From Terriglobia bacterium (lineage in GTDB: Bacteria > Acidobacteriota > Terriglobia > UBA7540), in assembly GCA_050014795.1 (NCBI GenBank), contig JBEKCQ010000055.1, forward strand, positions 1 through 24,000: a stretch of 24,000 bases of DNA. Direction: 5' to 3'. Under the pieces are notes generated by a model, which saw nothing but the letters and a program-made list of their open reading frames with translations, had not been told where the DNA came from and ran no database searches. The position numbers were made by a program, and so were the translations under genes. Position 1 is the stretch's first letter. The number at the start of each line of letters is the position of its first letter. Of the stretch, positions 6,681-20,746 are shown piece after piece.

Positions 6681-6962
6681 CGCTCCTTCGATCGTGCGCG
6701 CCATTATACGCCGGGAAGCACCCCTGCCCAAGGCGAAGGCCCATAGCCCGACACCCCGCCTTAGGTGCCCTTTGTTTTCGAATACGATACGCTTCGCCTT
6801 GAATTGGAACTTTGACCAGCCGGAGGATTCTGTTGCTCACGCGCTGTAGCCAGCGATAGAATCTGCCCGAGTCGGCGCTTTCAGGAGAAGGTTCCGACAG
6901 TATCTGAGGCTTTCACCCGCTGCCGAGTCTCGCATGGCAATCTGCCCCAGGAGGTCCCTCCT

Positions 6963-8429
6963 ATGAGAATCTGCCCGAAGTGCGGCGCCCAATCCCCTGA
7001 CGAGTACAATTTCTGTGGCCAATGCGCCGCGCCGCTGCCTGCCAAGGAAGTCGGACCCGAGGCAGTCGCGCCCCCGGTTGCGCCTGCTGCACCCGAGGTG
7101 CCACAGTCTTCGGTGCTTCCGGTTGCGCCGCCGCTCGGCTCACTCGGGACACGCCTGGTAGCGCACCTGATTGATCTTGTATTTCTCGTCCTAGCCTTCT
7201 GGTTGACCGGCAACGCCTATGGCGCACTGCTCGGCGGTTTGACGCCGAGTGGGTTCAATCTCACCGGCCTCCCCGCGCTCATCATCATCGGGGTGGCCTG
7301 TCTCGGGTTTTTCATTTACCTAGTCGTTTTCGAAGGGCTCGTGGGCGCGACACCCGGAAAGTTCCTCCTGGGCCTGCGCGTGAGAACCGTCGAAGGCGCT
7401 CCCTGCAAGTTCTCCCAGGCCGCGGTCCGCAACATCCTGCGCATTGTGGATGCGATTGCCGTTTACCTGGTGGCGCTCGTCGTGGCGTTGATCTCGAAAA
7501 AGAAGCAGCGTATAGGCGACTTGGCGGCACGGACCATCGTCGTTCAAGAGGCTCCCGGCGCGGCCAAGCGGGTGGGCGCGGTGCTTTTTCTGCTGGTTTG
7601 CCTGGTCGGCACCATTCTCGCTTCTCTGTACGTACGCCACCACTCCCGCGTTCCCATCCTGACCTTTGGCATCGCCAACCTGCGCCTCGCAGATTCGGAC
7701 ACGGCCCCGCCACGCACGAGCGCGGAATACAAGCCCGAGGAGGAGGTAAGGATCTTCTACGAGGTGCCAGGATACGAACTCGACAAGGATTCCTACATTG
7801 CCGTCATCACCCGGAACCAGGTGCTCGCCCCCGACGGCAAACCGTTCTTCGAAACCAAGACGATTGAGGTGAGGCAAAAGGCGGGAGACGACTCGGGACC
7901 GGTCAAGTGCAATTTCCACATCACCCTTCCACCCTGGGCGCCGCCCGGCCAGTACACCATCAGTATCCAGGCCGAGGACCAGATCGCCCACAAGACGGAG
8001 GCGGCGGCGGTAGTGTTCACGGTCAAGGCCCCGCCGGTTGAGACTAGCGCCACGCTGGTGGCCAAGAACATCGAACTGGCGAACAGCAGTGACGGCGCGA
8101 CGCTTAGCCCGCCCGTGTTCACTCCCGGGCAAAGCATCTGGCTGCGCTTCCGCGTCCTGGGGGTAAAGGCCAACGAGCAAGGACAAGTCCGCCTGACAGA
8201 GGACTGGGGCGTCATCGGCCCCGATGGCAAACCCCTCTTCGAACAGAGTGACACTTCCCTGGTGAACGAGCAGTACGTCTATCCGCCGCCGTTTGTCCCC
8301 GTCACGGACCACGTCAGCACACCCTCCAGCCTTGAGCCGGGGGAGTACAAGTTTCACGTGGTGCTACACGACAAGATGAGCGGCGCGGACTTCACACTCG
8401 ATCAGCCGTTCACGATTACGAAGCCCTGA
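6963..8429 (+). CDS. zinc-ribbon / RDD-family membrane protein with duplicated C-terminal beta-rich domain
   Basis: N-terminal CPKCG...CGQC zinc ribbon and a Pro/Ala linker. An RDD-type TM region follows (RLVAHLIDLVFL ... GDLAARTIVV). Two related C-terminal repeats are present (APDGKPFFETKTIEV... and GPDGKPLFEQSDTSLV...). Confidence 0.8.
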   Translation: MRICPKCGAQSPDEYNFCGQCAAPLPAKEVGPEAVAPPVAPAAPEVPQSSVLPVAPPLGSLGTRLVAHLIDLVFLVLAFWLTGNAYGALLGGLTPSGFNLTGLPALIIIGVACLGFFIYLVVFEGLVGATPGKFLLGLRVRTVEGAPCKFSQAAVRNILRIVDAIAVYLVALVVALISKKKQRIGDLAARTIVVQEAPGAAKRVGAVLFLLVCLVGTILASLYVRHHSRVPILTFGIANLRLADSDTAPPRTSAEYKPEEEVRIFYEVPGYELDKDSYIAVITRNQVLAPDGKPFFETKTIEVRQKAGDDSGPVKCNFHITLPPWAPPGQYTISIQAEDQIAHKTEAAAVVFTVKAPPVETSATLVAKNIELANSSDGATLSPPVFTPGQSIWLRFRVLGVKANEQGQVRLTEDWGVIGPDGKPLFEQSDTSLVNEQYVYPPPFVPVTDHVSTPSSLEPGEYKFHVVLHDKMSGADFTLDQPFTITKP

Positions 8430-8493
8430 GTGCGGCTCGTCGCCGCGTTGACAGGTTCGGCGAGTTGCGTTACTTTCGTGGTGTCGGTTCCTT

Positions 8494-8571
8494 AGGCCCG
8501 TAGCTCAGCCCGGTTAGAGCGCTACCTTGACACGGTAGAGGTCTGGGGTTCGAGTCCCCACGGGCCTACCA
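8494..8571 (+). tRNA. tRNA-Val (anticodon GAC), CCA encoded
   Basis: Hand-folded cloverleaf: acceptor AGGCCCG/CGGGCCT, D stem GCTC/GAGC, anticodon stem CTACC/GGTAG. The anticodon loop is TTGACAC, the T stem is TGGGG/CCCCA with TTCGAGT loop, discriminator A, then CCA. Confidence 0.9.
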
Positions 8572-8588
8572 TACGGCGTTTCAGCCCA

Positions 8589-8610
8589 TGTAGCGGAAAA
8601 TGTAGCGGGT
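8589..8610 (+). repeat. 22-nt motif TGTAGCGG-AAAA-TGTAGCGGGT, copy 1 (18 nt after the tRNA end)
   Basis: An internal tandem of TGTAGCGG with 12-nt period. It matches 17747-17768 at 18 of 22 positions, differing only in the 4-nt spacer. Confidence 0.5.
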
Positions 8611-8813
8611 ACCTGTGTTGATTGGCTTTGACTGGTTTGGGTTGGCCACGCGCAGATTCGTCACAAGAGCAAAGCTGATCGTAAGATTATATGTACTCGC
8701 CATTTATGGTTGTGTAGAATTCAGTTTAGCTGGAGACGCGGATTGTCATATAACATTCGGGACCCGGAGTAGCCGTGGCAGAGTTCTTGGCGTGCCTTCG
8801 GACGAGGCGGTGC

Positions 8814-9263
8814 ATGGGCGAGCGGCAACGGTCTCGACGTGGGAAGCGAACCGAAGCACAGATCAGCTTCAACATGTCTCGGGTGCGGAGCAGCGGGTCC
8901 AGGATCGAGCGGATGTTGGAGGAGGCTCTCCGGAAGGCTGGCGTCAGACCGAAGAAACAGGCTGCAATTGTTGGGCGACCAGACTTTGTTTTCCGTGCGG
9001 CGCGCGTGGCTGTGTTTTGCGACAGTCACTTCTGGCACGGGTACAAATGGAAAGAAAGGAAGCATGAGATAAAAAGCAATCGCAAATTCTGGTTAGAAAA
9101 GATCCAGCACAATATCAAACGGGATCGATATGTCAACCGCACGTTGAGAAGAGCAGGATGGCTGGTCGTTCGCTTCTGGCAACATCAGATCCTGCATTCG
9201 CCCAGCAAGTGCGCGGCCAAAGTCAAGCAGGTTGTTACAGCTCGAAGGACCGGACTAATTTAG
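8814..9263 (+). CDS. vsr: very-short-patch repair endonuclease (Vsr, T:G mismatch)
   Basis: RSKNMSR-like ISFNMSRVRSSGSRIE, GRPDFVF, AVFCDSHFWHG, NRKFWLEKIQHNIKRDR and GWLVVRFWQH all match Vsr family blocks. The start at ATG 8814 follows GAGG. Confidence 0.85.
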   Translation: MGERQRSRRGKRTEAQISFNMSRVRSSGSRIERMLEEALRKAGVRPKKQAAIVGRPDFVFRAARVAVFCDSHFWHGYKWKERKHEIKSNRKFWLEKIQHNIKRDRYVNRTLRRAGWLVVRFWQHQILHSPSKCAAKVKQVVTARRTGLI

Positions 9264-9265
9264 AA

Positions 9266-10357
9266 ATGGCAATCGTTGCGCTTGACCTTTTTTGCGGTTG
9301 CGGTGGGGTGACCTACGGACTTGCAAGAGCTGGAATCAAGGTCGCCTTGGGTATAGACATCGACGAGCGCTGCAGGTTTACCTTCAGACTGAACAACCCT
9401 GGGACAAACTTCCTTGTGGCTGACATCCGCGATGTTTCGGCACAGACATTACTGAAACACGTCCCCCATCTTACCGAAAGTGACTTCTTGCTGATCGCAG
9501 CATGCGCTCCTTGCCAGCCTTTCTCCTCTCAAAACAGGTCCAAGAACAAGACGTCAGGTCGTGCGATCCTGAACGAAGTAGAAAGAATAGTGCGAGAGTT
9601 GCGTCCCGAGTTCTTGTTTCTTGAAAATGTAACAGGAATACAAAAGGTTCCCGGCTTCAGTGCATTTCATCGCCTGTTGCGAGCTTTACATAACCTCAAG
9701 TACAAAGTGGAGTTTCGCAGTATTGACGCACTCTGGTATGGAATCCCGCAGAGGCGAAAGCGCCTGGTCCTCCTGGCCTCTGTTTACGGAAAGATTCCTT
9801 GGCCTGAGCAGACTCACGGTTTTGGTCCTGGGCTGCAAACGCCGGTCACGGTTCGTGAAGCGATAGCGCACTACCCGCCTTTGCAGGCGGGTGAGGCACA
9901 TCCAACAGTGCCTAACCATATCGCAGCCCGTTTGAGCCCACGCAATCTGGAGAGGATTCGCGCCACGGCTTGTGACGGCGGTAGCCGTAGCGAGTGGCCT
10001 AGACGCTTAGCTTTGTCCTGTCACGATACGCACGATGGTCACGAAGACGTGTACGGGCGGCTCCGCTGGGATGCTCTCGCGCCAACCCTCACAACCAAAT
10101 GCACAAGCATTTCCAATGGAAGATTCGGTCATCCAGACCAAGATCGCGCAATTTCTGCGCGGGAGGCTGCAGCTTTGCAGGGTTTCGACGATCGATTCGT
10201 TTTTTATGGGGGACTGCGTCAGATATCCGTTCAGATAGGAAATTCCGTTCCACCTGTTCTCGCCGAAAGATTCGGGAATGCATTCAAAGCCGAGGCTGAG
10301 GCGCTGAACGCGAACAAGAAGAGAATGAAATGGGCCTTACTCCTGGCTGGCCGATGA
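9266..10357 (+). CDS. dcm: DNA (cytosine-5)-methyltransferase
   Basis: Motif I DLFCGCGG, motif IV APCQPFS (catalytic Cys), motif VI ENV, motif VIII QRRKRL, motif X GNSVPP. The ATG lies 2 nt after the vsr stop. Confidence 0.9.
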   Translation: MAIVALDLFCGCGGVTYGLARAGIKVALGIDIDERCRFTFRLNNPGTNFLVADIRDVSAQTLLKHVPHLTESDFLLIAACAPCQPFSSQNRSKNKTSGRAILNEVERIVRELRPEFLFLENVTGIQKVPGFSAFHRLLRALHNLKYKVEFRSIDALWYGIPQRRKRLVLLASVYGKIPWPEQTHGFGPGLQTPVTVREAIAHYPPLQAGEAHPTVPNHIAARLSPRNLERIRATACDGGSRSEWPRRLALSCHDTHDGHEDVYGRLRWDALAPTLTTKCTSISNGRFGHPDQDRAISAREAAALQGFDDRFVFYGGLRQISVQIGNSVPPVLAERFGNAFKAEAEALNANKKRMKWALLLAGR

Positions 10358-10380
10358 GTTGACTAGGCAGATGAGGATAC

Positions 10381-12171
10381 CTACAAAAGGTACTGGCCTA
10401 GGTGTTCCAGAGCGTTATCGTGAACAGCCTTGATGACTTCATTTATTTTGTTTTCTACTGAATCAAAGGTCAGAGCCATCCCCTTCTTCTCCATAGCATG
10501 TAAGGCTTCCATAATTATAATGTCAACAAATCGCTGAAAGTGATACTCGCGCCATCTGGGCGATTCGGCTCCGTGCTGCCTATAGATTGCTGCAGCAAGT
10601 GGTCTGGAAGTGTTGATCCAATAGATTCCTGCGCCAACGTCTTGTGGCCGCTGGTAAACCGGGTTATGACGCGAACTCAGATCGACAGTTTGGGTGATTC
10701 CGAGAGGGTCGGGACTGTAGCTTGAAAGAAGGACTACGGGATGCCGCGTTCCTTTCTTTGGCTGGTCGCCCGCCCCTCCGCCTTTTGCGGCACCTTCACC
10801 ACCAGTGCCCCCTTTCGTTCTTGAGGAAGGACTTGTTCCACCCCCCGATCCGTCGATGCCCGTTCCCCCCGAACCAGATCCGGGTTCGGGCCCACCGAGC
10901 ACTTGAGTTAAGAGTCTATCCATAAACTGATTCTTCCAAGTGTTCAGGATTTTGTTAAATTCGTCTGTCAGCCTCAGGTTCTGAAGCGTCCGCTCTTTTG
11001 CTTCTTCCTTTTCAATCTTCTTCCCGACCTCATCAACTTGCTCTGCGATCCACCTTAAAAGCGCCCGCGTTCTGCGGTTATCTATCAGTTTTTCTCGGTC
11101 GTTCTTGACAGAATCTTCTTTTGGATCCTCAAGAATAGGGCAGAAGCATTCACCAAAAATGAACTCAGCCTGCGCGTACTGTTTGATATGCACGAGTTCT
11201 TGGATTCTATACGAGGCAATGACACCGATCTCCCCGAGGATGTCAATGCAGTTCAGTTCTGAAACGCGACTATTCCGCCCGAAAGGCTCCTTTGCAACCA
11301 TTAAGGAAAGATCGCCGGCATGGAACTTCTTGCTTGCGAACTCGATTTCCTCAACGTCCCCGTCTTCTTCGTACGGAAGGACCCGCGGAATCGGGATAGC
11401 CGGGAGGCTTTCAAATCCGGGACGGAGCTCGATTTGCTCACCCACGAGACGCTCCCAAACGAGCTCCCCGTTGTGCAACACTCTTATCGGTTTCCGTTGG
11501 ACGATCTTCCGAGCCTGCGGGTGCAACTTCATTTTCTCACAGAGTCGCGAAACCCGAATTGGACTCCGGACGCCGTCTGGCCGAATTCCACGGACGACCG
11601 TGAAACCAGTTCCTCCCGTCAAGATGCTATCTTTTGTCCTTTCTGGGAGGTCGAGCTCTCCTATCTCCGCCAGCGTCAGCGCTTCTCTTGGTGCGCAGGA
11701 CCTGTTTTGGAGCCCACGGGCGAATCCGTACCTCCTGTTCTCACTAAACCCAAACACATTCAGCATCCCGCCGCGATACGTAATGAAATAGGAGCGTTCA
11801 AACATTTGGCGCATATAGAACTTGCCACCGTTGCCGTGCCCGCCGTAGGTTCGTTTCTTGAGGCCGCGCGAAGCAGCCTTCGGGTCCCCCCAACGTTTCA
11901 AAGCCTTGTCTATATCGTCTGCAGTCATCCCGCAAAAGTCGATACACTCGAAGCTTGCAGGCTCAGTGTGTCCGGCATCCGTGAAGTTCAGCACAATGTG
12001 CTGTTGGTCATCGGGGATCGCCGGTTCCTCCCGGATGTAGGCATCGACCGAGTTCTTTATCCACTCGGGTAGGCCTTTTTCGTGGTTGAACTTGAACTCA
12101 TTTCCGATGATATCCAGAAGGTGATCGTCGATCACATTAGGCTGTTCGATTATGGAGACTTTAAGTGCCAC
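10381..12171 (-). CDS. GHKL (HATPase_c_3 / MORC-like) ATPase with Gly-rich linker and uncharacterised C-terminal domain
   Basis: Bergerat-fold motifs: N-box EWIKNSVDA, G1-like IDFCGMT, G2 YGGHGNGGKFY. A roughly 50-aa Gly/Ser/Thr linker (GGPEPGSGSGGTGIDGSGGGTSPSS...GGGAGD) precedes a roughly 115-aa C-terminal domain. The GTG start follows GAGGAGGAAA and overlaps the upstream gene by 11 nt. Confidence 0.75.
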   Translation of the reverse strand: MALKVSIIEQPNVIDDHLLDIIGNEFKFNHEKGLPEWIKNSVDAYIREEPAIPDDQQHIVLNFTDAGHTEPASFECIDFCGMTADDIDKALKRWGDPKAASRGLKKRTYGGHGNGGKFYMRQMFERSYFITYRGGMLNVFGFSENRRYGFARGLQNRSCAPREALTLAEIGELDLPERTKDSILTGGTGFTVVRGIRPDGVRSPIRVSRLCEKMKLHPQARKIVQRKPIRVLHNGELVWERLVGEQIELRPGFESLPAIPIPRVLPYEEDGDVEEIEFASKKFHAGDLSLMVAKEPFGRNSRVSELNCIDILGEIGVIASYRIQELVHIKQYAQAEFIFGECFCPILEDPKEDSVKNDREKLIDNRRTRALLRWIAEQVDEVGKKIEKEEAKERTLQNLRLTDEFNKILNTWKNQFMDRLLTQVLGGPEPGSGSGGTGIDGSGGGTSPSSRTKGGTGGEGAAKGGGAGDQPKKGTRHPVVLLSSYSPDPLGITQTVDLSSRHNPVYQRPQDVGAGIYWINTSRPLAAAIYRQHGAESPRWREYHFQRFVDIIIMEALHAMEKKGMALTFDSVENKINEVIKAVHDNALEHLGQYLL

Positions 12172-12811
12172 GAGTTTCCTCCTCGTTGCCCGATCTTGCA
12201 GATGACGTCTTCAGCCTAATCATATCTGCAAACCTCTCCACCATAAACTGATGAAACCGAGCAACAGCGACTAAGGAAAGGTCATCGGGGTTCGCATCCG
12301 ATATCTCATCCAGTGCGGATTTCACTGTTTCCAAACGCCCAATGAAATCGTTCCTCGTGGTGCGAACGCTAACACCCAGGTACTCGAACAAGTCTGAATC
12401 AATGATCTCGTCTTGCTTATTCGCGAGAAACAATTTGAAGCCCTCGAGGTGCTTTATCCTTTCTAGTTCTATCTGGGCGCCGCGTTCGATTCGGTGGCCC
12501 AGACGGGCCGAAGGGGGGCGACCCCCCTCAATAGCCTGAAGTCTTTGTACTTCTGCTAAACCGTGGGATGTCAGGGAGAACATCTTGTTCGAGGCCGAAA
12601 CCATCCCCTTTTTTCGATAATCGTAAAGGGGCTTGTGAACAATATCTCCTGAGTCTGGAAACTCAGGATGTCCTTTCAAGTGGAAGTCGCTAGCGTAGTC
12701 CCTGAACGCTTGTACGACTATATCCTCGTATCGAACCTTCCGGCGCCCCCCGTCAGAAAGGCGGTACAGACTGAGCAAAACCTTTTGCGCCATCGACAAC
12801 TGAGAGCTCAC
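12161..12811 (-). CDS. hypothetical protein (216 aa), possible N-terminal winged-helix; operon partner of the GHKL ATPase
   Basis: GTG start with an upstream GGAGGAGG/GGAAG. The N-terminus MAQKVLLSLYRLSDGGRRKVRYEDIVVQAF looks wHTH-like. There is no catalytic motif I can name. The 11-nt overlap with the GHKL gene implies co-translation. Confidence 0.6.
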   Translation of the reverse strand: MSSQLSMAQKVLLSLYRLSDGGRRKVRYEDIVVQAFRDYASDFHLKGHPEFPDSGDIVHKPLYDYRKKGMVSASNKMFSLTSHGLAEVQRLQAIEGGRPPSARLGHRIERGAQIELERIKHLEGFKLFLANKQDEIIDSDLFEYLGVSVRTTRNDFIGRLETVKSALDEISDANPDDLSLVAVARFHQFMVERFADMIRLKTSSARSGNEEETRGT

Positions 12812-12972
12812 GGCCGTTCTTCCGCCTCCTCCGACTCTGAGATATGTCCTCTTGTGCGCGAAACCAATCTTAACATATGCTCATGTCGCTGGAGAGGAAA
12901 GGCGCAGCCTCGATAGCAGCTCTCTTCCCCCCGTTTTCAAGCACGAAGAGCCTGATTGCGAAGGGCATTTGT

Positions 12973-14628
12973 ATGAATGATATTCCGGACCTTCCGGCGC
13001 ACTTGTCCCAGCGGCTAATCGGGGAACTCGACCTTTCCACACGGGCTTATAACGCTCTGAGCAAACACGGCGTGCGCACAATCAGCGATCTTGTCAAATT
13101 AAGCGACGAGGAAATGCTGCGCCTACCCTGGTTTGGTACGAAATGCCTGAATGAGGTGCACCAACTAACTCAGTCGCTCCTGCTGAGCTCAGCAAGGGAT
13201 CATGCAACTCCCAAGGAAGGCTTTGACCTTGCCGAATTAGCGCAATCGCATCCGAAAGACGCGTCCACATCCCTGCCGACGGATTATAGTCTGAGTGAGT
13301 GGGCGGTCCCAACACCGGCCAAGGGAGACTTGGATACGCCGATTGAACGCCTGCATTTGTCGCCTCGGGCGGCGAAAGTGCTTGGCTACCTTGGGATCAA
13401 GACGATTCGACAATTGCTTCGTTGCCCCAAGAATGCACTGCGCAAACAACCGAACTTTGGGCGTGTAAGCTTGTATGAGTTGGAGCGCAAAGTCTTCGAC
13501 AGCCTTGAGGGAAGTCACCAGCACGACTTCTCTCTAGGGACCAAGGCATTCACGGCAAGACTGCTTGCCTGCCTCCCCGAGCGCCAACAGAGGGTGATCG
13601 CAGATAGATACGGGCTGTGGGACGGTATTGCGGAGACACTGCAGGACATCGGAGACAAGTTGGGTCTGACGCGTGAGCGTATACGTCAAATAGAAGATAA
13701 GAGCCTTCGTCGAATTCGTGGTCGATTTGGTCTCCACATTGTAGTCGCATTTCTGCGCGCGACGTTCAGCGAGGCGCTCTCCCATCGACTTAGCGGGTGC
13801 GCTGGAATCCTAAGCGAAGACGAAGCCATGCAGGGCATGGCGAATGATTGCACCCTCGAAGAGGCGGCGCTGGCAGTTGCCTTTATGCGGGACATATGCC
13901 CGACCGAGGATGACATATTCGGGCTCTGTCTACGCAAAGTGGGGGACGGCGTCTATTGCGTAGAGCCAGAAACGGCCGAACGCTATGAGAAGGTACTCGG
14001 ATTGATCGAGAGCGGACTCGAAGGGCGTGGGGGGCCAGTAGCGGAAGGGAAACTCTGTGACGAAGTGCTGGAACGAACAAGGGCCTCTGAGCATCTTGAC
14101 TGGAGGCCGCTTATCCAGCGAGTTCTCGCCGTCTCGCCCTCTTTAACTCGCCTACGAAATGGAACTGTATGTCTCTCTGGGTGGACTGAGGTTCGCGGTC
14201 GCGATTACCCCAGTCTGGCAGTAACAGCGCTCGTCGCCCTGGGCCGTCCCGCTCACTACAAGGAGATTTGGGAGAAGGCCATGGCGCTCTATCCGCGACT
14301 AGGTGAGCTTAGTATACATGCGATTCATAACCGCCTGACTTCCAGATCGGACAAGTTCGTGTGGGTCGGGAAAGGAACTTATGGACTGAAAGCATGGGGA
14401 CTCAAAAGACCTCCGTATATAAAGGACAAACTAACGGAGCTGCTTTCGGAGGCCAAGTACCCGCTCCCTTATTGGCATCTCAAGGTCAAGGTGCTGGAGG
14501 TGTGCAACTGTAAGGAGGAATCGGTGCGCATGACGTTGGACCTGAATCCCCGCATTTTCAGGAAATTCGCAGACGACCAATATGGTCTTCGCGAGCACTA
14601 CGAGCGAAGGACCCATCGCCAAGGCTAG
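12973..14628 (+). CDS. multi-HTH protein: 2x RNA polymerase alpha-CTD-like (HhH) + sigma-70 region 4 + C-terminal HARE-HTH-like domain
   Basis: Module 1 LDLSTRAYNALSKHGVRTISDLVKLSDEEMLRLPWFGTKCLNEV and module 2 LHLSPRAAKVLGYLGIKTIRQLLRCPKNALRKQPNFGRVSLYEL resemble RpoA-CTD. LPERQQRVIADRYGLWDGIAETLQDIGDKLGLTRERIRQIEDKSLRRIR is a textbook sigma-70 region 4. The C-terminal ALGRPAHYKEIWEKAMALYPRLGELSIHAIHNRLTSRSDKFVWVGKGTYGLKAWG resembles HARE-HTH / RpoE-delta N-domain. The start is ATG 12973 (MNDIPD); the track alternative is 12877. Confidence 0.7.
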   Translation: MNDIPDLPAHLSQRLIGELDLSTRAYNALSKHGVRTISDLVKLSDEEMLRLPWFGTKCLNEVHQLTQSLLLSSARDHATPKEGFDLAELAQSHPKDASTSLPTDYSLSEWAVPTPAKGDLDTPIERLHLSPRAAKVLGYLGIKTIRQLLRCPKNALRKQPNFGRVSLYELERKVFDSLEGSHQHDFSLGTKAFTARLLACLPERQQRVIADRYGLWDGIAETLQDIGDKLGLTRERIRQIEDKSLRRIRGRFGLHIVVAFLRATFSEALSHRLSGCAGILSEDEAMQGMANDCTLEEAALAVAFMRDICPTEDDIFGLCLRKVGDGVYCVEPETAERYEKVLGLIESGLEGRGGPVAEGKLCDEVLERTRASEHLDWRPLIQRVLAVSPSLTRLRNGTVCLSGWTEVRGRDYPSLAVTALVALGRPAHYKEIWEKAMALYPRLGELSIHAIHNRLTSRSDKFVWVGKGTYGLKAWGLKRPPYIKDKLTELLSEAKYPLPYWHLKVKVLEVCNCKEESVRMTLDLNPRIFRKFADDQYGLREHYERRTHRQG

Positions 14629-14813
14629 GCTCGTCTGTTTCTGCAAGCGCACAATCGCATTGAGGGTATGACCTGCAATCGAGCTCATATTCAAGCACTC
14701 ACGCGCAGGGTTCGCCTCGCGCCCCTCCCTGCTGAGCAAAAGCTTGAAGTACCGCAATGATAGACGTAATCTTACGGAAACTCGCGACCCAGATAGCTGC
14801 AAAGGAGAGGAGG

Positions 14814-15611
14814 ATGGGCCACCAAATGCTACTTAATCGTGACGAAATCATGAGCAATGAGGTCATCCGGAATGGCGCCGAGAGTGCCTATCGCGCTGCA
14901 AGCTACGACCTGCGAGTCGGAAGAATCCTCACAACCTCTGGGGAGGAAAAGACGACCTTCATAATTCCGCCTCAAGGCATGGTTGACGTAATCTCACAGG
15001 AGAGGGTCATTTTGAAAGGGAGCATCGCCGGGTATGCTACGGTGAAAACGAGCTTGTGCCGGAATGGCATCCTCGCGATAAACATCGGGATTATTGACCC
15101 CGGTTATGAAGGGCTCATCTCCAGCACCCTCATAAACTTCAGCAAATGCCCATTCGCTCTCAGAGCCGGCGACCCTTTCCTTCGACTCACATTCCATCAG
15201 TACACTGCGCCCCGAACCCTTCCGGCTGCTCCATCCAAGGGGGATGAGGAATACGTTCAAGAACGAAAGAAGATGGTGCAAGAACGATTCTCTGCCACGT
15301 TTCTGGATGTCCCTCAGACGATTGAAAACTTGACCCCACCCTTAATCAAAAGGGTTCTAGATGATTGGAAGAGTGCTCTTTACAAGTGGGCACCGCTTTT
15401 TGCCTTCGTTATTGCTCTGCTCGCCTTTCTTGTGAACGTTGGTGCCACTCGCTTCGGGCAGCCCAAGGTGTCGAAGGAGCAATTAAAGGCAGAGGTGGTT
15501 GCCGAAATTCGCGATGAGAACCACAGGATTTTTGAAGAACGCCTGCAGCAAGTGGAGCGGCAGACTCAGCAATTACTTACTGAGAGGGAGCATCAGAAAA
15601 AGGTACAGTGA
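14814..15611 (+). CDS. dCTP deaminase/dUTPase-fold (Dcd-like) protein with C-terminal TM helix and coiled coil
   Basis: ASYDLRVG, VKTSLCRNG and IGIIDPGYEG...ALRAGDPFLRLTF align without effort to E. coli Dcd blocks (ATVDVRLG, GRSSLARLG, RIDPGWSG...ALRPGMLIGALSF). A hydrophobic helix WAPLFAFVIALLAFLVNVGA (nt 15387-15446) is followed by a charged heptad-like tail. The ATG 14814 is preceded by AAGGAGAGGAGG. Confidence 0.75.
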   Translation: MGHQMLLNRDEIMSNEVIRNGAESAYRAASYDLRVGRILTTSGEEKTTFIIPPQGMVDVISQERVILKGSIAGYATVKTSLCRNGILAINIGIIDPGYEGLISSTLINFSKCPFALRAGDPFLRLTFHQYTAPRTLPAAPSKGDEEYVQERKKMVQERFSATFLDVPQTIENLTPPLIKRVLDDWKSALYKWAPLFAFVIALLAFLVNVGATRFGQPKVSKEQLKAEVVAEIRDENHRIFEERLQQVERQTQQLLTEREHQKKVQ

Positions 15612-15637
15612 TAGAATAGTACGGAAAGGAAGTGTAG

Positions 15638-16630
15638 GTGGACAGCTTCGATTCCGTCGACGAGATTCAAAAGTGGGTTCTGGAATCATTGCTGGCACGG
15701 GGTGGCTCAACTCGGCCACGTGGTTCGGCCACACTTGAACTATTCCCAGTCTCGTTCATGCTTCGACATCCACGAATGAGATGTGTTACGAACCCGGCGA
15801 GACGATGGATTTTGCCATTGGCCCTGGGGGAATTTTGCTGGCACCTCTCCGGCTCAAATGATGTTCACTTCATCGAATATTACTCCAAACGCTGGAGAGA
15901 ATTCGCAGAGAGCGGTTCCTCGACCATCTGTGGCAGCTCTTATGGTCATAAGATATTTTCCCGAAGCGCCGGTGAACCCAGTCAATGGGACCGGCTTGTC
16001 GAGCTACTGCGAGTCGACCAACAATCGAGGCGTGCAGTGCTTGGTCTCTTCGACCCGGCTCGTGGCCTCAATCAAGATGAGAGAGATGTTGCCTGCGCCT
16101 GCTCCTTGCAGCTCATGATTCGGTCTGGTCGGCTCTTAGCCTTTGTCTACATGCGGAGCAATGATGCCATCTGGGGTCTGCCTTACGACATTTTCTTTTT
16201 CACTATGCTCCAGGAGTTGCTTGCCTGCGAGCTTGGCTTAGAACTTGGCTATTATTATCACTTCGCGGCTTCGCTTCACCTCTACGAACGTCACTTTGAA
16301 CTTGCCCACCGAATCGTTGAGACCGAGCCAGGTTCGCACTTTGAAATGCCACCGATGAGTGTGCACAAACAGGTTGACGATTTTCTGCGATTGGAGGCCG
16401 TACTCAGGTCCAGGCACGAGCTGTTACCCCGGCAGGTCGGAACGCTACATCCCTACTGGCGTGATTTGCTGGCCGTACTCGAGTGGTATAGTCAGGCAAA
16501 GGGTGCCGGGGGTTATCAAGCGGTGGCTGAGAAGGTTCCTACACCGTCCCCATATGGTCTGCTGTTGAGAAATATGTTGCCCAAAGCAGAGGCGGGAACG
16601 CGTGCCTATGCGGCGGATTATTCAGATTGA
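15638..16630 (+). CDS. thymidylate synthase (ThyA) family enzyme, predicted deoxycytidylate-specific (hydroxymethylase or methylase type)
   Basis: Gap-free block YMRSNDAIWGLPYDIFFFTMLQELLACELGLELGYYYHFAASLHLYERH against E. coli ThyA [50 protein letters not shown]. Also a catalytic Cys block VACACSLQLMI, SRRAV (phosphate-binding Arg pair) and LGEFCWHL (Glu). The GTG start follows GGAAAGGAAG. There is a roughly 90-aa C-terminal extension. Confidence 0.8.
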   Translation: MDSFDSVDEIQKWVLESLLARGGSTRPRGSATLELFPVSFMLRHPRMRCVTNPARRWILPLALGEFCWHLSGSNDVHFIEYYSKRWREFAESGSSTICGSSYGHKIFSRSAGEPSQWDRLVELLRVDQQSRRAVLGLFDPARGLNQDERDVACACSLQLMIRSGRLLAFVYMRSNDAIWGLPYDIFFFTMLQELLACELGLELGYYYHFAASLHLYERHFELAHRIVETEPGSHFEMPPMSVHKQVDDFLRLEAVLRSRHELLPRQVGTLHPYWRDLLAVLEWYSQAKGAGGYQAVAEKVPTPSPYGLLLRNMLPKAEAGTRAYAADYSD

Positions 16631-17099
16631 GGCTCACGCAAAGTTCCTGCAAATAGCTAAGCGCGTGAGTTTAGGGTCGAACTGTGTGCGTGGCCAAGTT
16701 GGAGTCGTGCTTGTCCAGGGGGGCAAGATTGTTTCGACGGGCTGGAACGGGGTGCCGACATCATTTCGCGATTGCCTTTCCGCAGGCTGTCCGCGATGCA
16801 AGCACCGGACTTCCACGGGAAGAGGGTATGACCGGTGTATCTGCGTCCACGCTGAACAGAGCGCCATTGCTACGGCTGCCCGCAACGGAATTCCTCTGAG
16901 GAGTGCAACAATGTATGTGAATCTCCGCCCTTGCCTTGGGTGCCTGAATCTGGCACTCACAGCCGGTGTTCGGAAAATCGTCTATGAAGTATCATGGACA
17001 TATCCAAGCAACATAGAGGCAGCCTATGAGAGGATTGCCAAAAGGCTGTCGTCTTTCCTTCGCGTCGATTCTCGTCGGAATAAGGCTGGAATTCGATGA
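16602..17099 (+). CDS. dCMP deaminase (ComEB / deoxycytidylate deaminase family, zinc-dependent)
   Basis: CVHAEQSAI (HAE) and RPCLGC (PCxxC) zinc motifs, plus an upstream Cys cluster CLSAGCPRCKH typical of dCMP deaminases. It is a single 165-aa domain. The start (GTG 16602 or ATG 16608) overlaps the 3' end of the ThyA-like gene. Confidence 0.85.
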   Translation: MPMRRIIQIEAHAKFLQIAKRVSLGSNCVRGQVGVVLVQGGKIVSTGWNGVPTSFRDCLSAGCPRCKHRTSTGRGYDRCICVHAEQSAIATAARNGIPLRSATMYVNLRPCLGCLNLALTAGVRKIVYEVSWTYPSNIEAAYERIAKRLSSFLRVDSRRNKAGIR

Positions 17100-17230
17100 T
17101 TGCAGCCGTCCGGTGAACCCACCTTCCGCGTTAAGAATTACACCTGATAGTTTCCCGGAGACGTGCATGACATGCGGCTTGTGCGCTGAGCGCCCACGTC
17201 ATGGTGGTCGGTTCGGTTGCCCTTCTGGTC

Positions 17231-17527
17231 TCAATTCGTTAGATGGCTGCCTACATCGGCGTTCTGTGCGAAGGCCTGCTTGTGGTGAAATGCCCGCCTG
17301 AATGCTTCGAGCTTCCGGATTGCGTCCCGCCGGTACTCGTCGATGACCTTGGCGTACGTCTGCAAGATGCCAGCAGATGAGTGCCCCATCATTTGAGCCA
17401 CGAAGAGATCCGGCGTCCCTGAAGCACTCAGCCTGCTGGCCACTGTGGCTTGGAGGTTGTGGCTAGCGTTGATGCCGCCCCTACTGGCGGCCGTCGCCCA
17501 TCTTACTGTGACTGGGACGACGTGTAG
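17231..17527 (-). pseudogene. tyrosine recombinase 3' remnant (C-terminal ~98 codons only)
   Basis: The reverse strand reads ...INASHNLQATVASRLSASGTPDLFVAQMMGHSSAGILQTYAKVIDEY.... This is a degenerate HxLRHT box (SHNLQAT) followed by the GHSS...Y catalytic-Tyr box. An in-frame stop at 17528-17530 bounds the frame, and no N-terminal two-thirds exists before the next gene. Confidence 0.65.
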
Positions 17528-17686
17528 TCAGGGGCACATTAGGTGCCGGCATCGGCTAGCGGCTTCGATGGCTTCCCTCTTAACTCAAAGCAACAAAAGG
17601 TGTTATGCGCCAACCAAGGGCGGGCGCTACCCTGCCTAGGTAGCGGGCAGCGCTTTTCCCCGGTGTTGCGGCCCAAACCTAACCCT

Positions 17687-18811
17687 TTATTGTACAACAA
17701 GTTGCGGCCTTCTTTCCTGCCCGCCAATTCCAGATTGGAGGGCAGTTGTAGCGGCTTTTGTAGCGGGTTCAGCCACTTTCCCAGGTGCCAGAATCAGTTC
17801 TACGGCCTTTCTTTTCAATTCGTTAGCGGGGTGCATGTAGCGGCGTGTCATCACAATTGACGCGTGCCCCGCCAGTTCTTGAATCACTGCCAGCGGCACA
17901 CCGGCGTCACTGAGACGCGAGCAAAAGGTGTGGCGCAGCTGGTGAAAAGTGATATGCGGAATTTCGGCAATCTTAACCGCCCGGCAGAAGGAATGTTTGA
18001 TATCTCCAACATGCTCCTTGGAGTTCTTTGGTGAAGGGAACACCCACTCGCCCTCGACCTCTTCGCGCCACTGTTGCAGCGTTGCGCGCAGCACCGCGTT
18101 CACGTACATCACCCGCCCTTGGCCTGCCCTGGTCTTCGACTTCCGCACGATCAGAATGCCGTTGTCCAGGTCGATGTCGGCCCAGCGTAGTCGAAGGATT
18201 TCGCCGCGCCGGAGGCCCGTATACACGGCCACCAAGATAATCGGCTTCAGGTGCGGTGCGAGGAAATGCAGTTCCGGGTGGTCACAGGCCTGCAGGAGCT
18301 TCGCCTCTTCCTCATACGAAAGGACGCGCTCGACTGGCGGTCCGTCCAGCTTGAATAGTTTGGCGTCACGGGCGCCGTTGGTTTCGACCAACTCCCACTT
18401 CACCGCCGTGCTCAGCATGCTTTTGACCAGGCCGACCTCACGGTTGATTGAAGATTTCTTCAAGCCCGCGTCCAGGCGCTTCTGCTTGAATTTCTCCACG
18501 GTGTAAGCTGAGATTTCATTCAACCTGTACCGCCCGAGGAACGGAACCAAGGCACGCGGGACGTAGTACCTTTCTACCGTGAAGGCCGGTTTGTTGGCTT
18601 CGCTGTATTTCAGGTAGCGAGCGGCAAAGTCAGAAAACTTCGGATTCTCCTTCTTCGCCAGGCCGTGTTTCCCAAGGGCCAGCTGGGCCTTGTGAACCGA
18701 CTCAATCCTGAGTGCCATCTTGCGGCTTGTCAGTTTCGTTGGCCGCTGGATATGCTGGCCTTCGAACCAGAAGTGGTACCACCAGACTCCCCCGCGCTTG
18801 TAGATGCTCAT
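17687..18811 (-). CDS. int: site-specific tyrosine integrase
   Basis: MSIYKRGGVWWYHFWFEGQ N-terminus, Arg box GLRRGEILRLRW, HQLRHTFCSRL, and LAGHASIVMTRRYMH (catalytic Tyr). The ATG 18811 is preceded by GAGGGAGAAG. Confidence 0.9.
   Translation of the reverse strand: MSIYKRGGVWWYHFWFEGQHIQRPTKLTSRKMALRIESVHKAQLALGKHGLAKKENPKFSDFAARYLKYSEANKPAFTVERYYVPRALVPFLGRYRLNEISAYTVEKFKQKRLDAGLKKSSINREVGLVKSMLSTAVKWELVETNGARDAKLFKLDGPPVERVLSYEEEAKLLQACDHPELHFLAPHLKPIILVAVYTGLRRGEILRLRWADIDLDNGILIVRKSKTRAGQGRVMYVNAVLRATLQQWREEVEGEWVFPSPKNSKEHVGDIKHSFCRAVKIAEIPHITFHQLRHTFCSRLSDAGVPLAVIQELAGHASIVMTRRYMHPANELKRKAVELILAPGKVAEPATKAATTALQSGIGGQERRPQLVVQ
17747..17768 (+). repeat. 22-nt motif TGTAGCGG-CTTT-TGTAGCGGGT, copy 2 (inside the integrase 3' coding end)
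   Basis: Matches 8589-8610 at 18 of 22 positions. On the reverse strand it encodes PATKAATT, about 20 codons before the int stop. Confidence 0.5.
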
Positions 18812-18995
18812 TTTCTTCTCCCTCAACGGGCTGACGATGCTGATCGACGAATTCCTCCAGGTCACTTTCGCGGAATCGCACCAGGCGGCCAATCTTGCGG
18901 TGGGAAATCCGCCTCTGGGCGACCCAGAGGTAGAGCGTTTGCGGTTTCACCCCCAGCTTGGCGGCGGCTTCTGCAATGGTTAGAAGCTTTTCCAT
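18702..18995 (-). CDS. xis: excisionase / HTH_17 (MerR-like) DNA-binding protein
   Basis: MEKLLTIAEAAAKLGVKPQTLYLWVAQRRISHRKIGRLVRFRESDLEEFV is a typical excisionase-family HTH. The ATG 18995 is preceded by GGGGGTGGG. The reading frame continues 110 nt past the int start. Confidence 0.75.
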   Translation of the reverse strand: MEKLLTIAEAAAKLGVKPQTLYLWVAQRRISHRKIGRLVRFRESDLEEFVDQHRQPVEGEENEHLQARGSLVVPLLVRRPAYPAANETDKPQDGTQD

Positions 18996-19250
18996 TGCCC
19001 ACCCCCAAGGGTTCTGCGCCCCACACGCCCCTGGGCAAAGCCCCCTAGCACCCCGCCAGGGGCAACACCCGGCCCGCCAGCACCCCCCGGCAGGGGTTGG
19101 CTTGGCCCCAGAATCAGCGGCGCCGTGGGCCGCATTTGGCCGCCAAGGCCCCTGCAAGCCGTGGGCTGCTGCCCCCGCAGCCACAGCAACGGGAAACTGC
19201 CCCAGCGGGTCTGCAAGCGGCATTTTCGGGCATTCGGCTTGGGCCATATA

Positions 19251-20447: not shown

Positions 20448-20746
20448 GACGAATCCCCCTCCACAAGATGTGCTGTTTGGAGTCTACACGAGACGAGAAC
20501 GATTCGGCACTGCTCCCTGCTAGGTGCGAAATGCAGGGCATGTTTTGACCCCATTACGTGAATTCACGCCTTTCCCCCCCTCTGATATTCCTCCTCATGG
20601 CAAGAACATTTCTCGAGTAGGCGAGACAGTTCTTCGGCCGAAAGTAAATTGAATTGGAAGCGGCGCCAGGCAGCGCCGGCAGTTTTTCCCACCTCCTGGG
20701 TTCTGCCACGCTGCCTGGCGTCGGCCAAAAAACTCAGGAGGGGTTC

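Follow-up and report, generated by a model that had tools for sequence, protein, structure and literature searches.

ATPases of the MORC and paraMORC families that occur with Dcm and Vsr genes have been described as parts of restriction-modification systems (PMC2292703). In phages with modified cytosine, the genes for dCMP deaminases co-localise with Asp-type homologues of thymidylate synthase (TS), and these deaminases act on 5-modified dC nucleotides (bioRxiv 10.1101/2024.12.05.627091). The anti-phage activity of a TS-domain system, DS-4, has been validated, and the product names in supplementary Table S3 of that study, taken here as a list of predicted defence genes, include 'thymidylate synthase' and 'dCTP deaminase' (PMC13092281).

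The window, which is the whole stretch of 24,000 nucleotides analysed here, contains an island whose left edge and integration target is a tRNA-Val (GAC) gene (8494..8571, plus strand, found by ARAGORN). Eight intact ORFs lie between this gene and an integrase remnant. All eight genes of the preliminary description are real, and its domain calls hold with two corrections, to the Dcd-like and ThyA-like proteins. The motif TGTAGCGG-N4-TGTAGCGGGT (8589..8610, no strand assigned) adjoins the tRNA gene, with a second copy at 17747-17768; two matches were found and none was expected by chance. This repeat probably binds the integrase or is associated with att, and would mark where each tandem segment starts. 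At its decayed right end, segment 1 has a C-terminal fragment of a tyrosine integrase (17231..17443, minus strand), which matches the 3' region of the intact gene in an alignment (repeat D3). This intact tyrosine integrase (17687..18892, minus strand; PF00589, E 5e-35) belongs to the second tandem segment, outside both cassettes described below. The G+C content of the eight-gene block is 0.51-0.56; the corresponding values are 0.59-0.64 for the DNA upstream and 0.55-0.58 for the integrase region.

The eight genes form two conserved cassettes. Cassette 1 (8814-14628) begins with the very-short-patch (T:G mismatch) endonuclease Vsr (8814..9263, plus strand; PF03852, E 7.5e-16), which scores 108 bits against TIGR00632 (cut-off 97.85) and has a DSHFWH motif in its translation. 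The C5 cytosine DNA methyltransferase Dcm (9266..10357, plus strand; PF00145, E 2.5e-49) shows the motifs FCGCGG, PCQPFS, ENV, QRR and GNSVPP and is 57-67% identical to Dcm in sister GHKL cassettes. The third protein (10381..12171, minus strand, 596 residues) was identified by Bergerat motifs and Foldseek as a MORC-like GHKL + S5 ATPase. Its Bergerat-fold motifs are E36xxxN40xxD43, D78xxG81 and GGHGNGGKFYMRQMF, and its layout includes a linker rich in Gly and, at the C-terminus, a conserved domain. It has zero matches in Pfam, NCBIfam and PADLOC, and none of its 762 homologues matches a Pfam model. The top Foldseek matches of its AlphaFold model (pLDDT 76) are the ATPase modules of MORC2 and MORC3 (E 4e-11). 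The gene of the partner protein (12161..12811, minus strand, 216 residues) shares 11 nt with the GHKL gene. The partner consists of an N-terminal winged helix and a helical domain (AlphaFold pLDDT 86), for which the fold search gave weak PadR/MukF-like matches and no nuclease fold. Domain searches of the last protein (12877..14628, plus strand, 583 residues) revealed two RNA_pol_A_CTD domains and Sigma70_r4, together with a HARE-HTH domain that is weak here (E 0.0097) and is matched in 27 of 41 orthologues, at best with 2e-9.

These five genes, for Vsr, Dcm, the GHKL ATPase, its winged-helix partner and the alphaCTD-sigma4-HARE-HTH protein, are a recurrent set, found at 80 metagenome loci with identities of 45-85%. 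The partner gene adjoins the GHKL gene in 75 of the 80 loci and the HARE-HTH protein gene does so in 54. Of the 34 contigs that are 10 kb or longer, 28 have Dcm, GHKL and partner together and 18 have all five genes; the gene order is rearranged between clades. Genes for the Dcd-like, ThyA-like and deaminase proteins were found at none of the 80 loci (437 kb of flanking DNA).

Cassette 2 (14814-17099) begins with DcdL (14814..15611, plus strand; PF22769, E 3.9e-12), in which a domain of dUTPase/Dcd fold is followed by one transmembrane helix and then a coiled coil. There are 119 cluster representatives of equal length at E <= 1e-30. The position of the Dcd catalytic Glu is occupied by Thr/Ser (IDPGYEGLISSTLINF, alignment). 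The best PDB matches are archaeal 'dCTP deaminase' entries of 155 residues, also without this Glu, and dUTPases come next. With the catalytic Glu absent, deaminase activity, or even action on cytosine, cannot be taken as given. DcdL looks like a membrane-anchored pyrophosphatase of dUTPase type, with a cytosine specificity suggested by its context, and it could also bind nucleotides without hydrolysing them.

The second protein, ThyL (15638..16630, plus strand; PF00303, E 1.2e-25), is of the (deoxy)cytidylate 5-hydroxymethylase type represented by MilA and T4 gp42. In a profile search against the PDB its best solved relative is the CMP 5-hydroxymethylase MilA (1.8e-65), followed by T4 dCMP hydroxymethylase (9e-22) and ThyA (about 1e-21). 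The residues C153, E65, R131/R132, S174, D184, H214 and Y216 are invariant, and Asp184 occupies the position of Asn177 in E. coli ThyA. According to published specificity rules, Lys133/Ala176 correspond to ribose, Arg/Ser to deoxyribose and Asp186 to cytosine (PMC5175136). ThyL carries Arg, Ser and Asp, the determinants of deoxyribose and cytosine. It appears nearest to the CMP/dCMP 5-hydroxymethylases MilA and T4 gp42, although the sequence does not separate a methylase from a hydroxymethylase. The end of its gene is overlapped by that of a zinc deaminase of the dCMP/cytidine deaminase family (16608..17099, plus strand; PF00383, E 4.5e-19), which has HAE and PCxxC motifs and is 49-53% identical to the deaminases that follow ThyL at two other loci (L003 and L012). 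The two corrections to the preliminary description thus concern 'Dcd-like', a protein that lacks the catalytic Glu and whose action on cytosine is suggested by context, and 'dCMP-type ThyA', which is much nearer to MilA than to ThyA.

About 25 genomes, spread over many phyla, carry DcdL and ThyL as a tight pair. Among the 31 genome loci with a ThyL at least 40% identical, about 25 have DcdL immediately upstream of it, in Acidobacteriota, Myxococcota, Cyanobacteria, Bacteroidota, Alpha- and Gammaproteobacteria and Bacillota; the gene calls at related loci are longest-ORF approximations. ThyL is the most conserved component of this cassette. The slot beside the pair is filled by two non-homologous deaminase families, of dCMP-deaminase and CDA type. 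In a sister form, a gene for HMUDK_hel (5-hmdU-DNA-kinase-like) stands right after ThyL in place of the deaminase, and Dcm is not a neighbour; one such locus has a MazG/MazG_C neighbour. Another locus (L229) has a deoxynucleoside-kinase-like gene upstream. Other neighbours include Gabija-like AAA_15/OLD, DISARM DrmE, SIR2_2, ImmA/IrrE regulators and conjugation genes. Cassette 2 is rare and patchy, and is carried on islands and conjugative elements. Viral contigs contain no cassette 2; their ThyL relatives are at most 40% identical and without DcdL, to which only three weak partial matches were found.

The preliminary description had proposed that the 8.8-17.1 kb block may be one system in which the GHKL, partner and HARE-HTH genes accompany all five cytosine genes. 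The comparisons do not support this. At the 80 loci these three genes go with Dcm and Vsr alone, and none of them occurs in the approximately 25 DcdL-ThyL genomes. The two cassettes therefore assort independently, an outcome that the preliminary description had itself named as counting against its reading. Cassette 2 is absent from all nearest relatives of cassette 1, and the two may have come to lie side by side in this window only recently, with no functional significance.

A narrower idea, a link between the five cytosine genes, does have a basis in the co-occurrence data. Of 25 DcdL-ThyL loci, 12 have a C5 methylase no more than 10 kb away, as does none of 28 ThyA-like loci without DcdL, a control that is small and phylogenetically unlike the test set (Fisher p = 2e-5). 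The three commonest neighbours of the pair are C5 methylase (11), cytosine/dCMP deaminase (9) and Vsr (6). These are the sole strongly recurrent ones; N6 methylase is not among the 25 commonest families, and at a single locus an N6/N4 methylase takes the place of a C5 methylase. The operon Dcm-HNH-Vsr-DcdL-ThyL-deaminase is present on several contigs, where its genes all point in one direction and abut or overlap. Next to the Dcm genes of the pair loci, the restriction partners vary and comprise HNH, MvaI/BcnI, HpaII, AspBHI/Mrr, paraMORC and UvrD-PD-(D/E)XK, and the association is spread over many lineages of the ThyL tree. Within the pair loci the deaminase tracks Dcm (7/9 with and 5/16 without, p = 0.04), and in about half of the loci there is no Dcm in the vicinity. 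In unrelated bacteria, cassettes of this second kind repeatedly adjoin systems with a cytosine methylase and Vsr; no description of this association was found in the literature searched.

These comparisons allow us to propose, with about an even chance of being correct as a whole, two independently mobile cassettes on a tRNA-Val island, one for 5mC restriction and the other an anti-phage arm that converts dC nucleotides. The substrates, products, trigger and defence role are what we infer, with the pathway predicted from homology. Cassette 1 would be a five-gene restriction-modification-like system built on 5-methylcytosine. Dcm would mark self DNA, and the only recognisable nuclease is Vsr. 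The MORC-like ATPase and its winged-helix partner may provide ATP-driven handling of DNA, and the alphaCTD-sigma4-HARE-HTH protein may read DNA and possibly contact RNA polymerase. Cassette 2 would be a compact operon in which DcdL is predicted to convert dCTP to dCMP, ThyL to convert dCMP to 5-hydroxymethyl-dCMP, and the deaminase to turn either this compound or dCMP into the uracil form. The gp56, gp42 and Cd enzymes of phage T4 follow the same logic. Since cassette 2 encodes no kinase, the products would be trapped as monophosphates. Its most likely role would be to drain or corrupt the dC nucleotide pool beside C5-methylase/Vsr restriction systems of many types. A sink for dCTP that is always on would be toxic, and the window has no evident sensor or trigger. 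In addition, nucleotide depletion alone leaves the preference for C5-methylase neighbours unexplained, and the HMUDK_hel form is a hint that hydroxymethyl-pyrimidines are handled in DNA, as opposed to depletion of the pool.

This preference would be accounted for, whatever the nuclease type, if cassette 2 acted on C5-modified dC nucleotides made by phages (5hm-dCTP, 5m-dCTP). By established logic, a C5 substituent must block a restriction enzyme whose partner is a C5 methylase, so cytosine-replacing phages stripped of their modified nucleotides would lose protection from the neighbouring enzyme. DcdL, pyrophosphatase-like without the deaminase Glu, would hydrolyse these nucleotides and the deaminase destroy them, with ThyL possibly running a redox-neutral hydroxymethylation backwards. 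Enzymes of the dCMP-deaminase family that prefer 5m-dCTP or 5hm-dCTP are known (bioRxiv 10.1101/2024.12.05.627091). However, the reversal is speculation, the sequences reveal no preference for modified substrates, and the sister form lacks a Dcm neighbour; we consider this quite unlikely. The opposite direction, closest to the earlier idea, is that 5-hydroxymethyl-pyrimidine nucleotides from cassette 2 are phosphorylated by host kinases and incorporated into host or element DNA, as a replication-coupled mark beside Dcm methylation. The enzyme trio mirrors phage pathways of cytosine replacement. The 5-hmdU-DNA-kinase and MazG families belong to DNA hypermodification pathways, and both occur at the sister loci; the kinase-like gene at L229 would also fit. 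However, a nucleotide kinase is absent from the window and most loci, and T4 gp1 kinase was co-expressed in an assay to bring 5-modified dCMP into the dNTP pool (bioRxiv 10.1101/2024.12.05.627091). The same mark would also reach phage DNA that replicates in the cell, and cassette 2 encodes nothing that excludes dCTP or dTTP from host replication, which leaves self-marking unlikely.

It is very unlikely that cassette 2 is a housekeeping accessory of Dcm comparable to Vsr, clearing 5-methyl-dC nucleotides set free when methylated DNA is turned over (5m-dCTP to 5m-dCMP to dTMP) or offering an alternative route from dCTP to dTMP via 5-methyl-dCMP. The association of cassette 2 with Dcm and Vsr and the tracking of Dcm by the deaminase agree with it; for phage Xp12 a route from 5m-dC to dT has been proposed, and 5m-dCMP was the product of five of the seven phage-linked TS homologues tested (bioRxiv 10.1101/2024.12.05.627091). 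However, ThyL, the most conserved part, would make C5-modified dCMP and not remove it, and its closest characterised relatives are hydroxymethylases. A rare and patchy cassette, borne on islands and conjugative elements and in about half of its loci without Dcm, is also a poor fit. Finally, the two cassettes and the Dcm/Vsr genes might be unrelated passengers that cluster only through the accumulation of defence and mobile genes in shared islands, which would make the cytosine theme a coincidence. The two cassettes are together nowhere outside this window, scans for promoters and terminators gave no sign of co-transcription, and the loci without Dcm or with the N6/N4 methylase point the same way. 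We consider coincidence quite unlikely, since C5 methylase, deaminase and Vsr recur where N6 methylase does not, the methylase count differs from that of the control, the genes abut or overlap in a fused operon, and the association extends to six nuclease types and many ThyL lineages.

The eight intact genes at 8.8-17.1 kb of the window had been described as one system acting on cytosine. This part of the preliminary description is not supported, and the block consists of two cassettes that occur apart in all other loci examined. Scanning with a ThyL alignment, one genome per species, gave 53 loci and scanning metagenomes with a GHKL alignment gave 80; all of them were then searched with every protein of the window. 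The genes of the GHKL ATPase and its winged-helix (wHTH) partner are adjacent in 75 of the 80 GHKL loci, where 51 also have Dcm and 42 have Vsr. Wherever the contig is long enough, this pair is accompanied by Dcm, Vsr and the HARE-HTH protein; of the 34 contigs of at least 10 kb, 28 carry Dcm, GHKL and partner together and 18 carry the complete set of five. DcdL, ThyL and the deaminase are absent from all 80 GHKL loci and from their 437 kb of flanks. In about 25 loci, which represent at least seven phyla, the DcdL gene immediately precedes that of ThyL, and GHKL, partner and HARE-HTH protein are absent from these. As the two gene sets occur apart in the loci examined, the block is divided into cassette 1 (8814-14628; Vsr, Dcm, GHKL ATPase, partner and an alphaCTD-sigma4-HARE-HTH protein) and cassette 2 (14814-17099; the "Dcd-like" DcdL, the "ThyA-like" ThyL and a dCMP/cytidine deaminase). 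They were seen side by side in the window only. A single eight-gene system was rejected, being found in none of the 80 GHKL loci, 53 ThyA-like genome loci and 77 viral loci.

The presence of the eight genes themselves is confirmed. Vsr and Dcm pass curated thresholds and have their catalytic motifs. Vsr scores 108.2 bits with TIGR00632 (cut-off 97.85) and 58.2 with PF03852 (cut-off 27); it has the catalytic motif DSHFWHG and is the sole recognisable nuclease of cassette 1. Dcm reaches 168.9 bits with PF00145 (cut-off 22) and 135 with TIGR00675 (cut-off 100.65). It is assigned to its class by the PF00145 score above cut-off together with motifs I (FCGCGG), IV (PCQPFS, with the catalytic Cys), VI (ENV), VIII (QRRKR) and X (GNSVPP) in its translation.

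The GHKL protein of 596 aa carries the Bergerat motifs E36xxxN40xxD43, D78xxG81 and G110-G116, invariant in 23 sequences. It has no match at E <= 0.01 in Pfam, NCBIfam or PADLOC, and its family profile has no significant match among PDB sequences. The closest folds to its AlphaFold model (pLDDT 76) are the ATPase modules of MORC2 and MORC3, followed by Hsp90, topoisomerase IV and SMCHD1. Foldseek aligns the model with the MORC2/MORC3 modules over 427-508 columns (E 4e-11), with TM-scores of 0.31-0.36 and an rmsd of about 9-10 Å. At the level of sequence, the marks of MORC membership (Pfam HATPase_c_3 and the MORC-specific motif) are not found in this protein. The partner (216 aa) consists of a winged-helix domain and a helical domain, and its gene overlaps the GHKL gene by 11 nt; its fold search gave weak winged-helix matches only (E 0.015) and no nuclease fold. 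No named defence system was found for either protein in PADLOC and NCBIfam searches.

The fifth protein (583 aa) contains sigma-70 region 4 and two copies of the alpha C-terminal domain of RNA polymerase, with 99.6 bits for RNA_pol_A_CTD, 54.7 for Sigma70_r4 and 16.7, below threshold, for HARE-HTH. Among its orthologues, these domains are found in 39, 41 and 27 of 41 sequences, respectively, with a best HARE-HTH value of 2e-9, and the family belongs to the three-domain alphaCTD-sigma4-HARE-HTH class. Such bacterial proteins were reportedly treated by Aravind & Iyer in 2012 (Cell Cycle). The present protein has the same set of domains (alpha C-terminal domains of RNA polymerase, sigma region 4 and HARE-HTH), and here it is a constant part of the five-gene cassette with Dcm, Vsr and GHKL.

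GHKL ATPases of the MORC/paraMORC type were described by Iyer, Abhiman & Aravind (2008, PMC2292703) from restriction-modification loci that also encode cytosine methylases and Vsr-fold nucleases, and cassette 1 is most likely of this kind. In both, mobile islands encode a GHKL ATPase (here putatively followed by an S5-fold transducer domain) together with a methylase of cytosine and an endonuclease of the Vsr superfamily. However, cassette 1 has no helicase partner, has the wHTH and alphaCTD-sigma4-HARE-HTH proteins as fixed partners, and no model in Pfam, NCBIfam or PADLOC covers its GHKL family. Mza (Gao et al. 2020), an anti-phage system, also encodes a sigma-70-region-4 protein with a GHKL ATPase, which is MutL-like. 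The MzaA model NF041931 matches the sigma4 segment of the 583-aa protein with 45.6 bits against a cut-off of 800, but GHKL and partner match no Mza models and the Z1 and AIPR genes are absent. Restriction of foreign DNA and boosted T:G repair are possible alternative functions for cassette 1.

The order of the cassette 1 genes differs between the clades with 70-85% and 45-50% identity. In 36 loci of the distant clade (L075-L137; L-numbers denote related loci), the partner gene is immediately preceded by a sixth conserved small gene of about 72 aa (ERFKRLAxxRTN...LGNxSN..., for example L077:9157-9378), which neither the window nor its close relatives have. Five loci have a gene of cluster c8 (281-388 aa) in place of the HARE-HTH protein. 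With more than 700 homologues, cassette 1 represents a widespread five-gene system without a family model. It unites a MORC-like ATPase, a predicted modified-cytosine reader and RNA-polymerase-derived domains, and is thus relevant to the bacterial origins of chromatin factors of the MORC and ASXL types.

The domain calls first made for cassette 2 hold in general, with two corrections: "Dcd-like" lacks the dCTP-deaminase Glu, and "ThyA" is closest to MilA. The DcdL gene probably starts at 14814. The IDPG motif is kept, and in IDPGYEGLISSTLINF a Thr/Ser occupies the position of the dCTP-deaminase catalytic Glu in 24 of 24 family members, as assigned through the alignment with Glu-containing 4xjc and the sequences of E. 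coli Dcd and dUTPase. We take this position to be that of the catalytic Glu138 of E. coli Dcd, which follows the IDPG motif. DcdL scores 59.2 bits with the dCTP deaminase equivalog TIGR02274, below the cut-off of 92.8, and 47 bits with the fold-level Pfam DCD model, above the cut-off of 27. A true dCTP deaminase was rejected on account of the absent Glu and the equivalog score. The best solved relatives are archaeal proteins of 155 aa, deposited as dCTP deaminase and also without the Glu, followed by dUTPases. DcdL has a conserved transmembrane helix and a coiled coil, and 119 cluster representatives at E <= 1e-30 are of similar length throughout. We infer that DcdL is a pyrophosphatase-type enzyme.

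ThyL matches the CMP 5-hydroxymethylase MilA with E of 1.8e-65 over the full length, including the C-terminal extension, while the values for T4 dCMP hydroxymethylase and ThyA are about 1e-21. Its scores with the NCBIfam ThyA equivalogs are all far under the cut-offs. Asp184 is invariant at the position of ThyA Asn177 (uracil recognition); this substitution and the best match to MilA rule out ThyA itself. The invariant residues C153, E65, H214, Y216 and D184 align with MilA C155, E68, H216, Y218 and D186, giving the Cys nucleophile, the catalytic Glu, the His/Tyr ribose contacts and the Asp for cytosine of a (deoxy)cytidylate 5-hydroxymethylase. The best solved relatives, MilA and BcmA, are CMP 5-hydroxymethylases of nucleoside-antibiotic pathways, and the specificity rules were established for MilA, which carries Lys133 and Ala176 (PMC5175136). 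ThyL differs in having Arg and Ser at these positions. By the same rules, its invariant Arg131/Arg132, Ser174 and Asp184 indicate deoxyribose and cytosine in the substrate, so that the sequence predicts dCMP and not CMP. The product may be the 5-hydroxymethyl nucleotide, since the closest characterised relative is a hydroxymethylase and a 5-hmdU-DNA-kinase-like (HMUDK_hel) gene is found in sister loci. In contrast to the MilA pathways, no MilB-type N-glycosidase and no antibiotic gene cluster is found near ThyL.

The deaminase (165 aa) has HAE and PCxxC motifs. Like the anti-phage dCTP deaminase (Tal et al. 2022; NF041025), it is expected to act on the dC pool, and it matches the deaminase core of that model only (profile positions 337-385); the kinase-like N-terminal domain is absent and the score for NF041025/PADLOC dCTPase is 65 bits, below the cut-off of 400. 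PADLOC and NCBIfam searches gave no named defence system for DcdL or ThyL.

The unity around cytosine that had been proposed for the block survives in part: DcdL-ThyL-deaminase recurs beside Dcm/Vsr. A C5 methylase lies within 10 kb, mostly one or two genes off, in 12 of 25 DcdL-ThyL loci and in 0 of 28 ThyA-like loci without DcdL, a small and phylogenetically different control set (p = 2e-5). The association is dispersed over the ThyL tree. In a Pfam census of 142 neighbours, the only strongly recurrent families are C5 methylase (11), cytidine/dCMP deaminase (9) and Vsr (6), and no N6 methylase is among the top 25 neighbour families. The deaminase slot is taken by two distinct deaminase families, and six kinds of nuclease adjoin these Dcm genes (HNH, MvaI/BcnI, HpaII, AspBHI/Mrr, paraMORC and UvrD-PD-(D/E)XK). 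The closer ThyL homologues (54-62% identity) occur in two recurrent contexts. In one, Dcm-HNH-Vsr-DcdL-ThyL-deaminase form a co-directional operon whose genes abut or overlap; in the other, DcdL-ThyL is followed by the HMUDK_hel gene and Dcm is absent. The Dcm and Vsr of the window belong to the GHKL-cassette lineage, with 57-67% identity to those copies, and this Dcm is only about 28% identical to that of the HNH operon. Cassette 2 of the window therefore adjoins a C5-methylase system other than that of its closest relatives, which points to a tie of cassette 2 with cytosine methylation in general and not with one nuclease. A role of DcdL-ThyL-deaminase as a recurrent satellite of Dcm/Vsr systems is partly supported. 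No description of the DcdL-ThyL pair or its Dcm/Vsr link was found in the full-text literature, which was covered in part, and an earlier description is possible.

The sister form with HMUDK_hel is found in L002, L009, L215-L217 and L221-L225, where a protein of 316-370 aa with the 5-hmdU DNA kinase helical domain is encoded after ThyL; L223 has a MazG/MazG_C neighbour, and L224 and L225 have an N6_N4 methylase upstream. Genes of ImmA/IrrE-type metalloproteases, some with or beside HTH_3, repeatedly flank the Dcm-Vsr-DcdL-ThyL-deaminase operons (L012:11458-15343; L218:1184-2430 and 7155-7946; L003:5679-6872) and could be stress-responsive regulators. Further genes of L012 encode a DUF7002 protein and a fusion of a kinase with an adenylosuccinate-synthetase-like domain. 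In L007, an AspBHI/Mrr-type restriction enzyme (11236-12546) adjoins a Dcm-Vsr pair and the DcdL-ThyL-deaminase cassette; this family is 5mC-dependent, and it is puzzling to find a nuclease that depends on methylation paired with a methylase. In L030, the gene just upstream of DcdL-ThyL (6472-8649) encodes 726 aa, with a DCD domain at the C-terminus (E 3.5e-29) preceded by an uncharacterised region of 500 aa, so that two Dcd-fold genes are consecutive.

The neighbours of the cassettes include Gabija-like, DISARM, SIR2, ImmA/IrrE, relaxase and coupling-protein genes. The relatives of ThyL on viral contigs (IMG/VR) have at most 40% identity and an adjacent dCMP deaminase in 35 of 71 cases; DcdL, Dcm and Vsr are never beside them, and DcdL itself gave only three weak matches on such contigs. 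In isolated phage genomes, the ThyL relatives have at most 37% identity. Phage cargo was rejected for cassette 2 in view of these distant viral relatives without DcdL and the near-absence of viral DcdL. The defence and conjugation neighbours together with the viral scarcity indicate that cellular islands and conjugative elements carry both cassettes as cargo. The ThyA-like genes of plasmids (Leptospira, Pantoea, Streptococcus) were set aside, belonging to other subfamilies with different partners. Behind those of L055 (Leptospira) and L056 (Pantoea), with 34-37% identity to ThyL, come one or two hypothetical genes and an ImmA/IrrE gene, in what seems to be a further TS-fold cassette whose partners differ. 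The ThyA-like genes of L039-L052, from Bacillota and Bacteroidota, form a more distant clade and lie in a conserved cluster with an HMUDK_hel-family gene and three further conserved genes (clusters c5, c4 and c8 of the analysis of that clade), which recalls the TS-containing DS-4 system of the DefensePredictor paper.

The T4 deoxycytidylate pathway consists of gp56 dCTPase, gp42 dCMP hydroxymethylase, Cd dCMP deaminase and gp1 kinase. Cassette 2 would cover three of these four steps: dCTP hydrolysis by a dNTP pyrophosphatase-like protein, dCMP hydroxymethylation by an Asp-type TS-fold enzyme, and dCMP deamination. Unlike in T4, a kinase for the step from product to triphosphate is missing, and the genes are carried by cells and islands, not phages. 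The dUTPase/Dcd fold and membrane anchor of DcdL show that it is not a gp56 homologue, and ThyL is nearer MilA than gp42.

We propose, tentatively and with more doubt than confidence, that DcdL-ThyL(-deaminase) is an unrecognised nucleotide-level arm of cytosine-methylation restriction, in which the host would convert dCTP in T4-like fashion to 5-hydroxymethyl-pyrimidine nucleotides, functionally coupled to Dcm/Vsr. The coupling might starve or corrupt the dC pool for phages escaping restriction, strip C5-modified cytosine nucleotides from phages, or write hydroxymethyl-pyrimidines into DNA as a second self mark. In modified-cytosine phages, the genes of Asp-type TS homologues lie close to those of dCMP deaminases, whose substrates are 5-modified dC nucleotides (10.1101/2024.12.05.627091). 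DS-4, a TS-containing system, is validated as anti-phage, and an E. coli 'thymidylate synthase' of 326 aa was flagged by DefensePredictor (PMC13092281). DS-4 comprises TS, dNMP kinase, a hypermodification-type protein and TIR, whereas the window has the TS-fold gene alone; an HMUDK_hel partner is in sister loci and not in the window. On the basis of the phage co-localisation and the validated TS system, a pool-level anti-phage function accompanying 5mC-based restriction is favoured for cassette 2.

Other readings of the same genes were weighed. Destruction of phage-made modified dC nucleotides would agree with the substrates of the phage deaminases; it is decidedly improbable. Marking of DNA with hydroxymethyl-pyrimidines, for which the HMUDK_hel sister loci are of interest and to which the gap at the kinase step is relevant, is unlikely. 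Housekeeping of 5-methyl-dC nucleotides would suit the neighbouring C5 methylases; for genes carried on islands and conjugative elements, it is very improbable. Coincidental clustering of the cassettes with Dcm/Vsr could be entertained from the DcdL-ThyL loci, about half of them, that lack a nearby C5 methylase; with the dispersed recurrence of the others, its probability is low.

If the nucleotide-level arm is true, the composite system would have DNA-level and pool-level effectors, both on cytosine C5. With a functional link, bacteria would have borrowed the enzyme logic of T-even restriction evasion (dCTPase, dCMP hydroxymethylase and dCMP deaminase) and joined it to the restriction class that C5-modified phage DNA defeats. 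This would add a layer to the cytosine-modification arms race and, next to dCTP deaminase and dGTPase, a new type of defence at the level of the nucleotide pool. A possible yield would be enzymes that select modified deoxycytidine nucleotides, which are useful in epigenetic sequencing. Both cassettes are small and directly testable by cloning.

The window is part of a metagenome contig (ENA ERZ27250144). A tRNA-Val gene (8494-8571) lies to the left of the eight genes, and the G+C content is 0.59-0.64 upstream, 0.51-0.56 in the block and 0.55-0.58 beyond it. A C-terminal fragment of a tyrosine-type integrase (17231-17443, minus strand), 3' of the block, shows homology (repeat D3) with the 3' portion of the intact integrase gene (17687-18892) at the start of the second segment; an integrase of its own has apparently been lost from segment 1. 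The motif TGTAGCGG-N4-TGTAGCGGGT occurs at 8589-8610, right after tRNA-Val, and at 17747-17768, within the 3' end of the intact integrase gene, with none expected by chance. This repeat fits two tandem elements using one attachment region, and the layout suggests that they integrated in tandem. A further copy of the tRNA-Val 3' end, sought as the right border, was not found in a 21-kb stretch of the contig. Promoter and terminator counts were at chance level and uninformative on operon structure. An excisionase-like helix-turn-helix sequence (MEKLLTIAEAAAKLGVKPQTLYLWV...; 18892-19100, minus strand) lies upstream of the integrase inside ORF 18702-19247; the public gene call picked another, overlapping ORF. 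The PrimPol/AEP-type protein of 822 aa (20654-23122; precomputed Pfam AEP-TOTE, PriCT_1 and DUF3631, and PADLOC PrimPol models) is the replication module of the second segment. A PrimPol-like gene is also present in the sister GHKL-cassette loci L068 and L102, in L068 together with an integrase.
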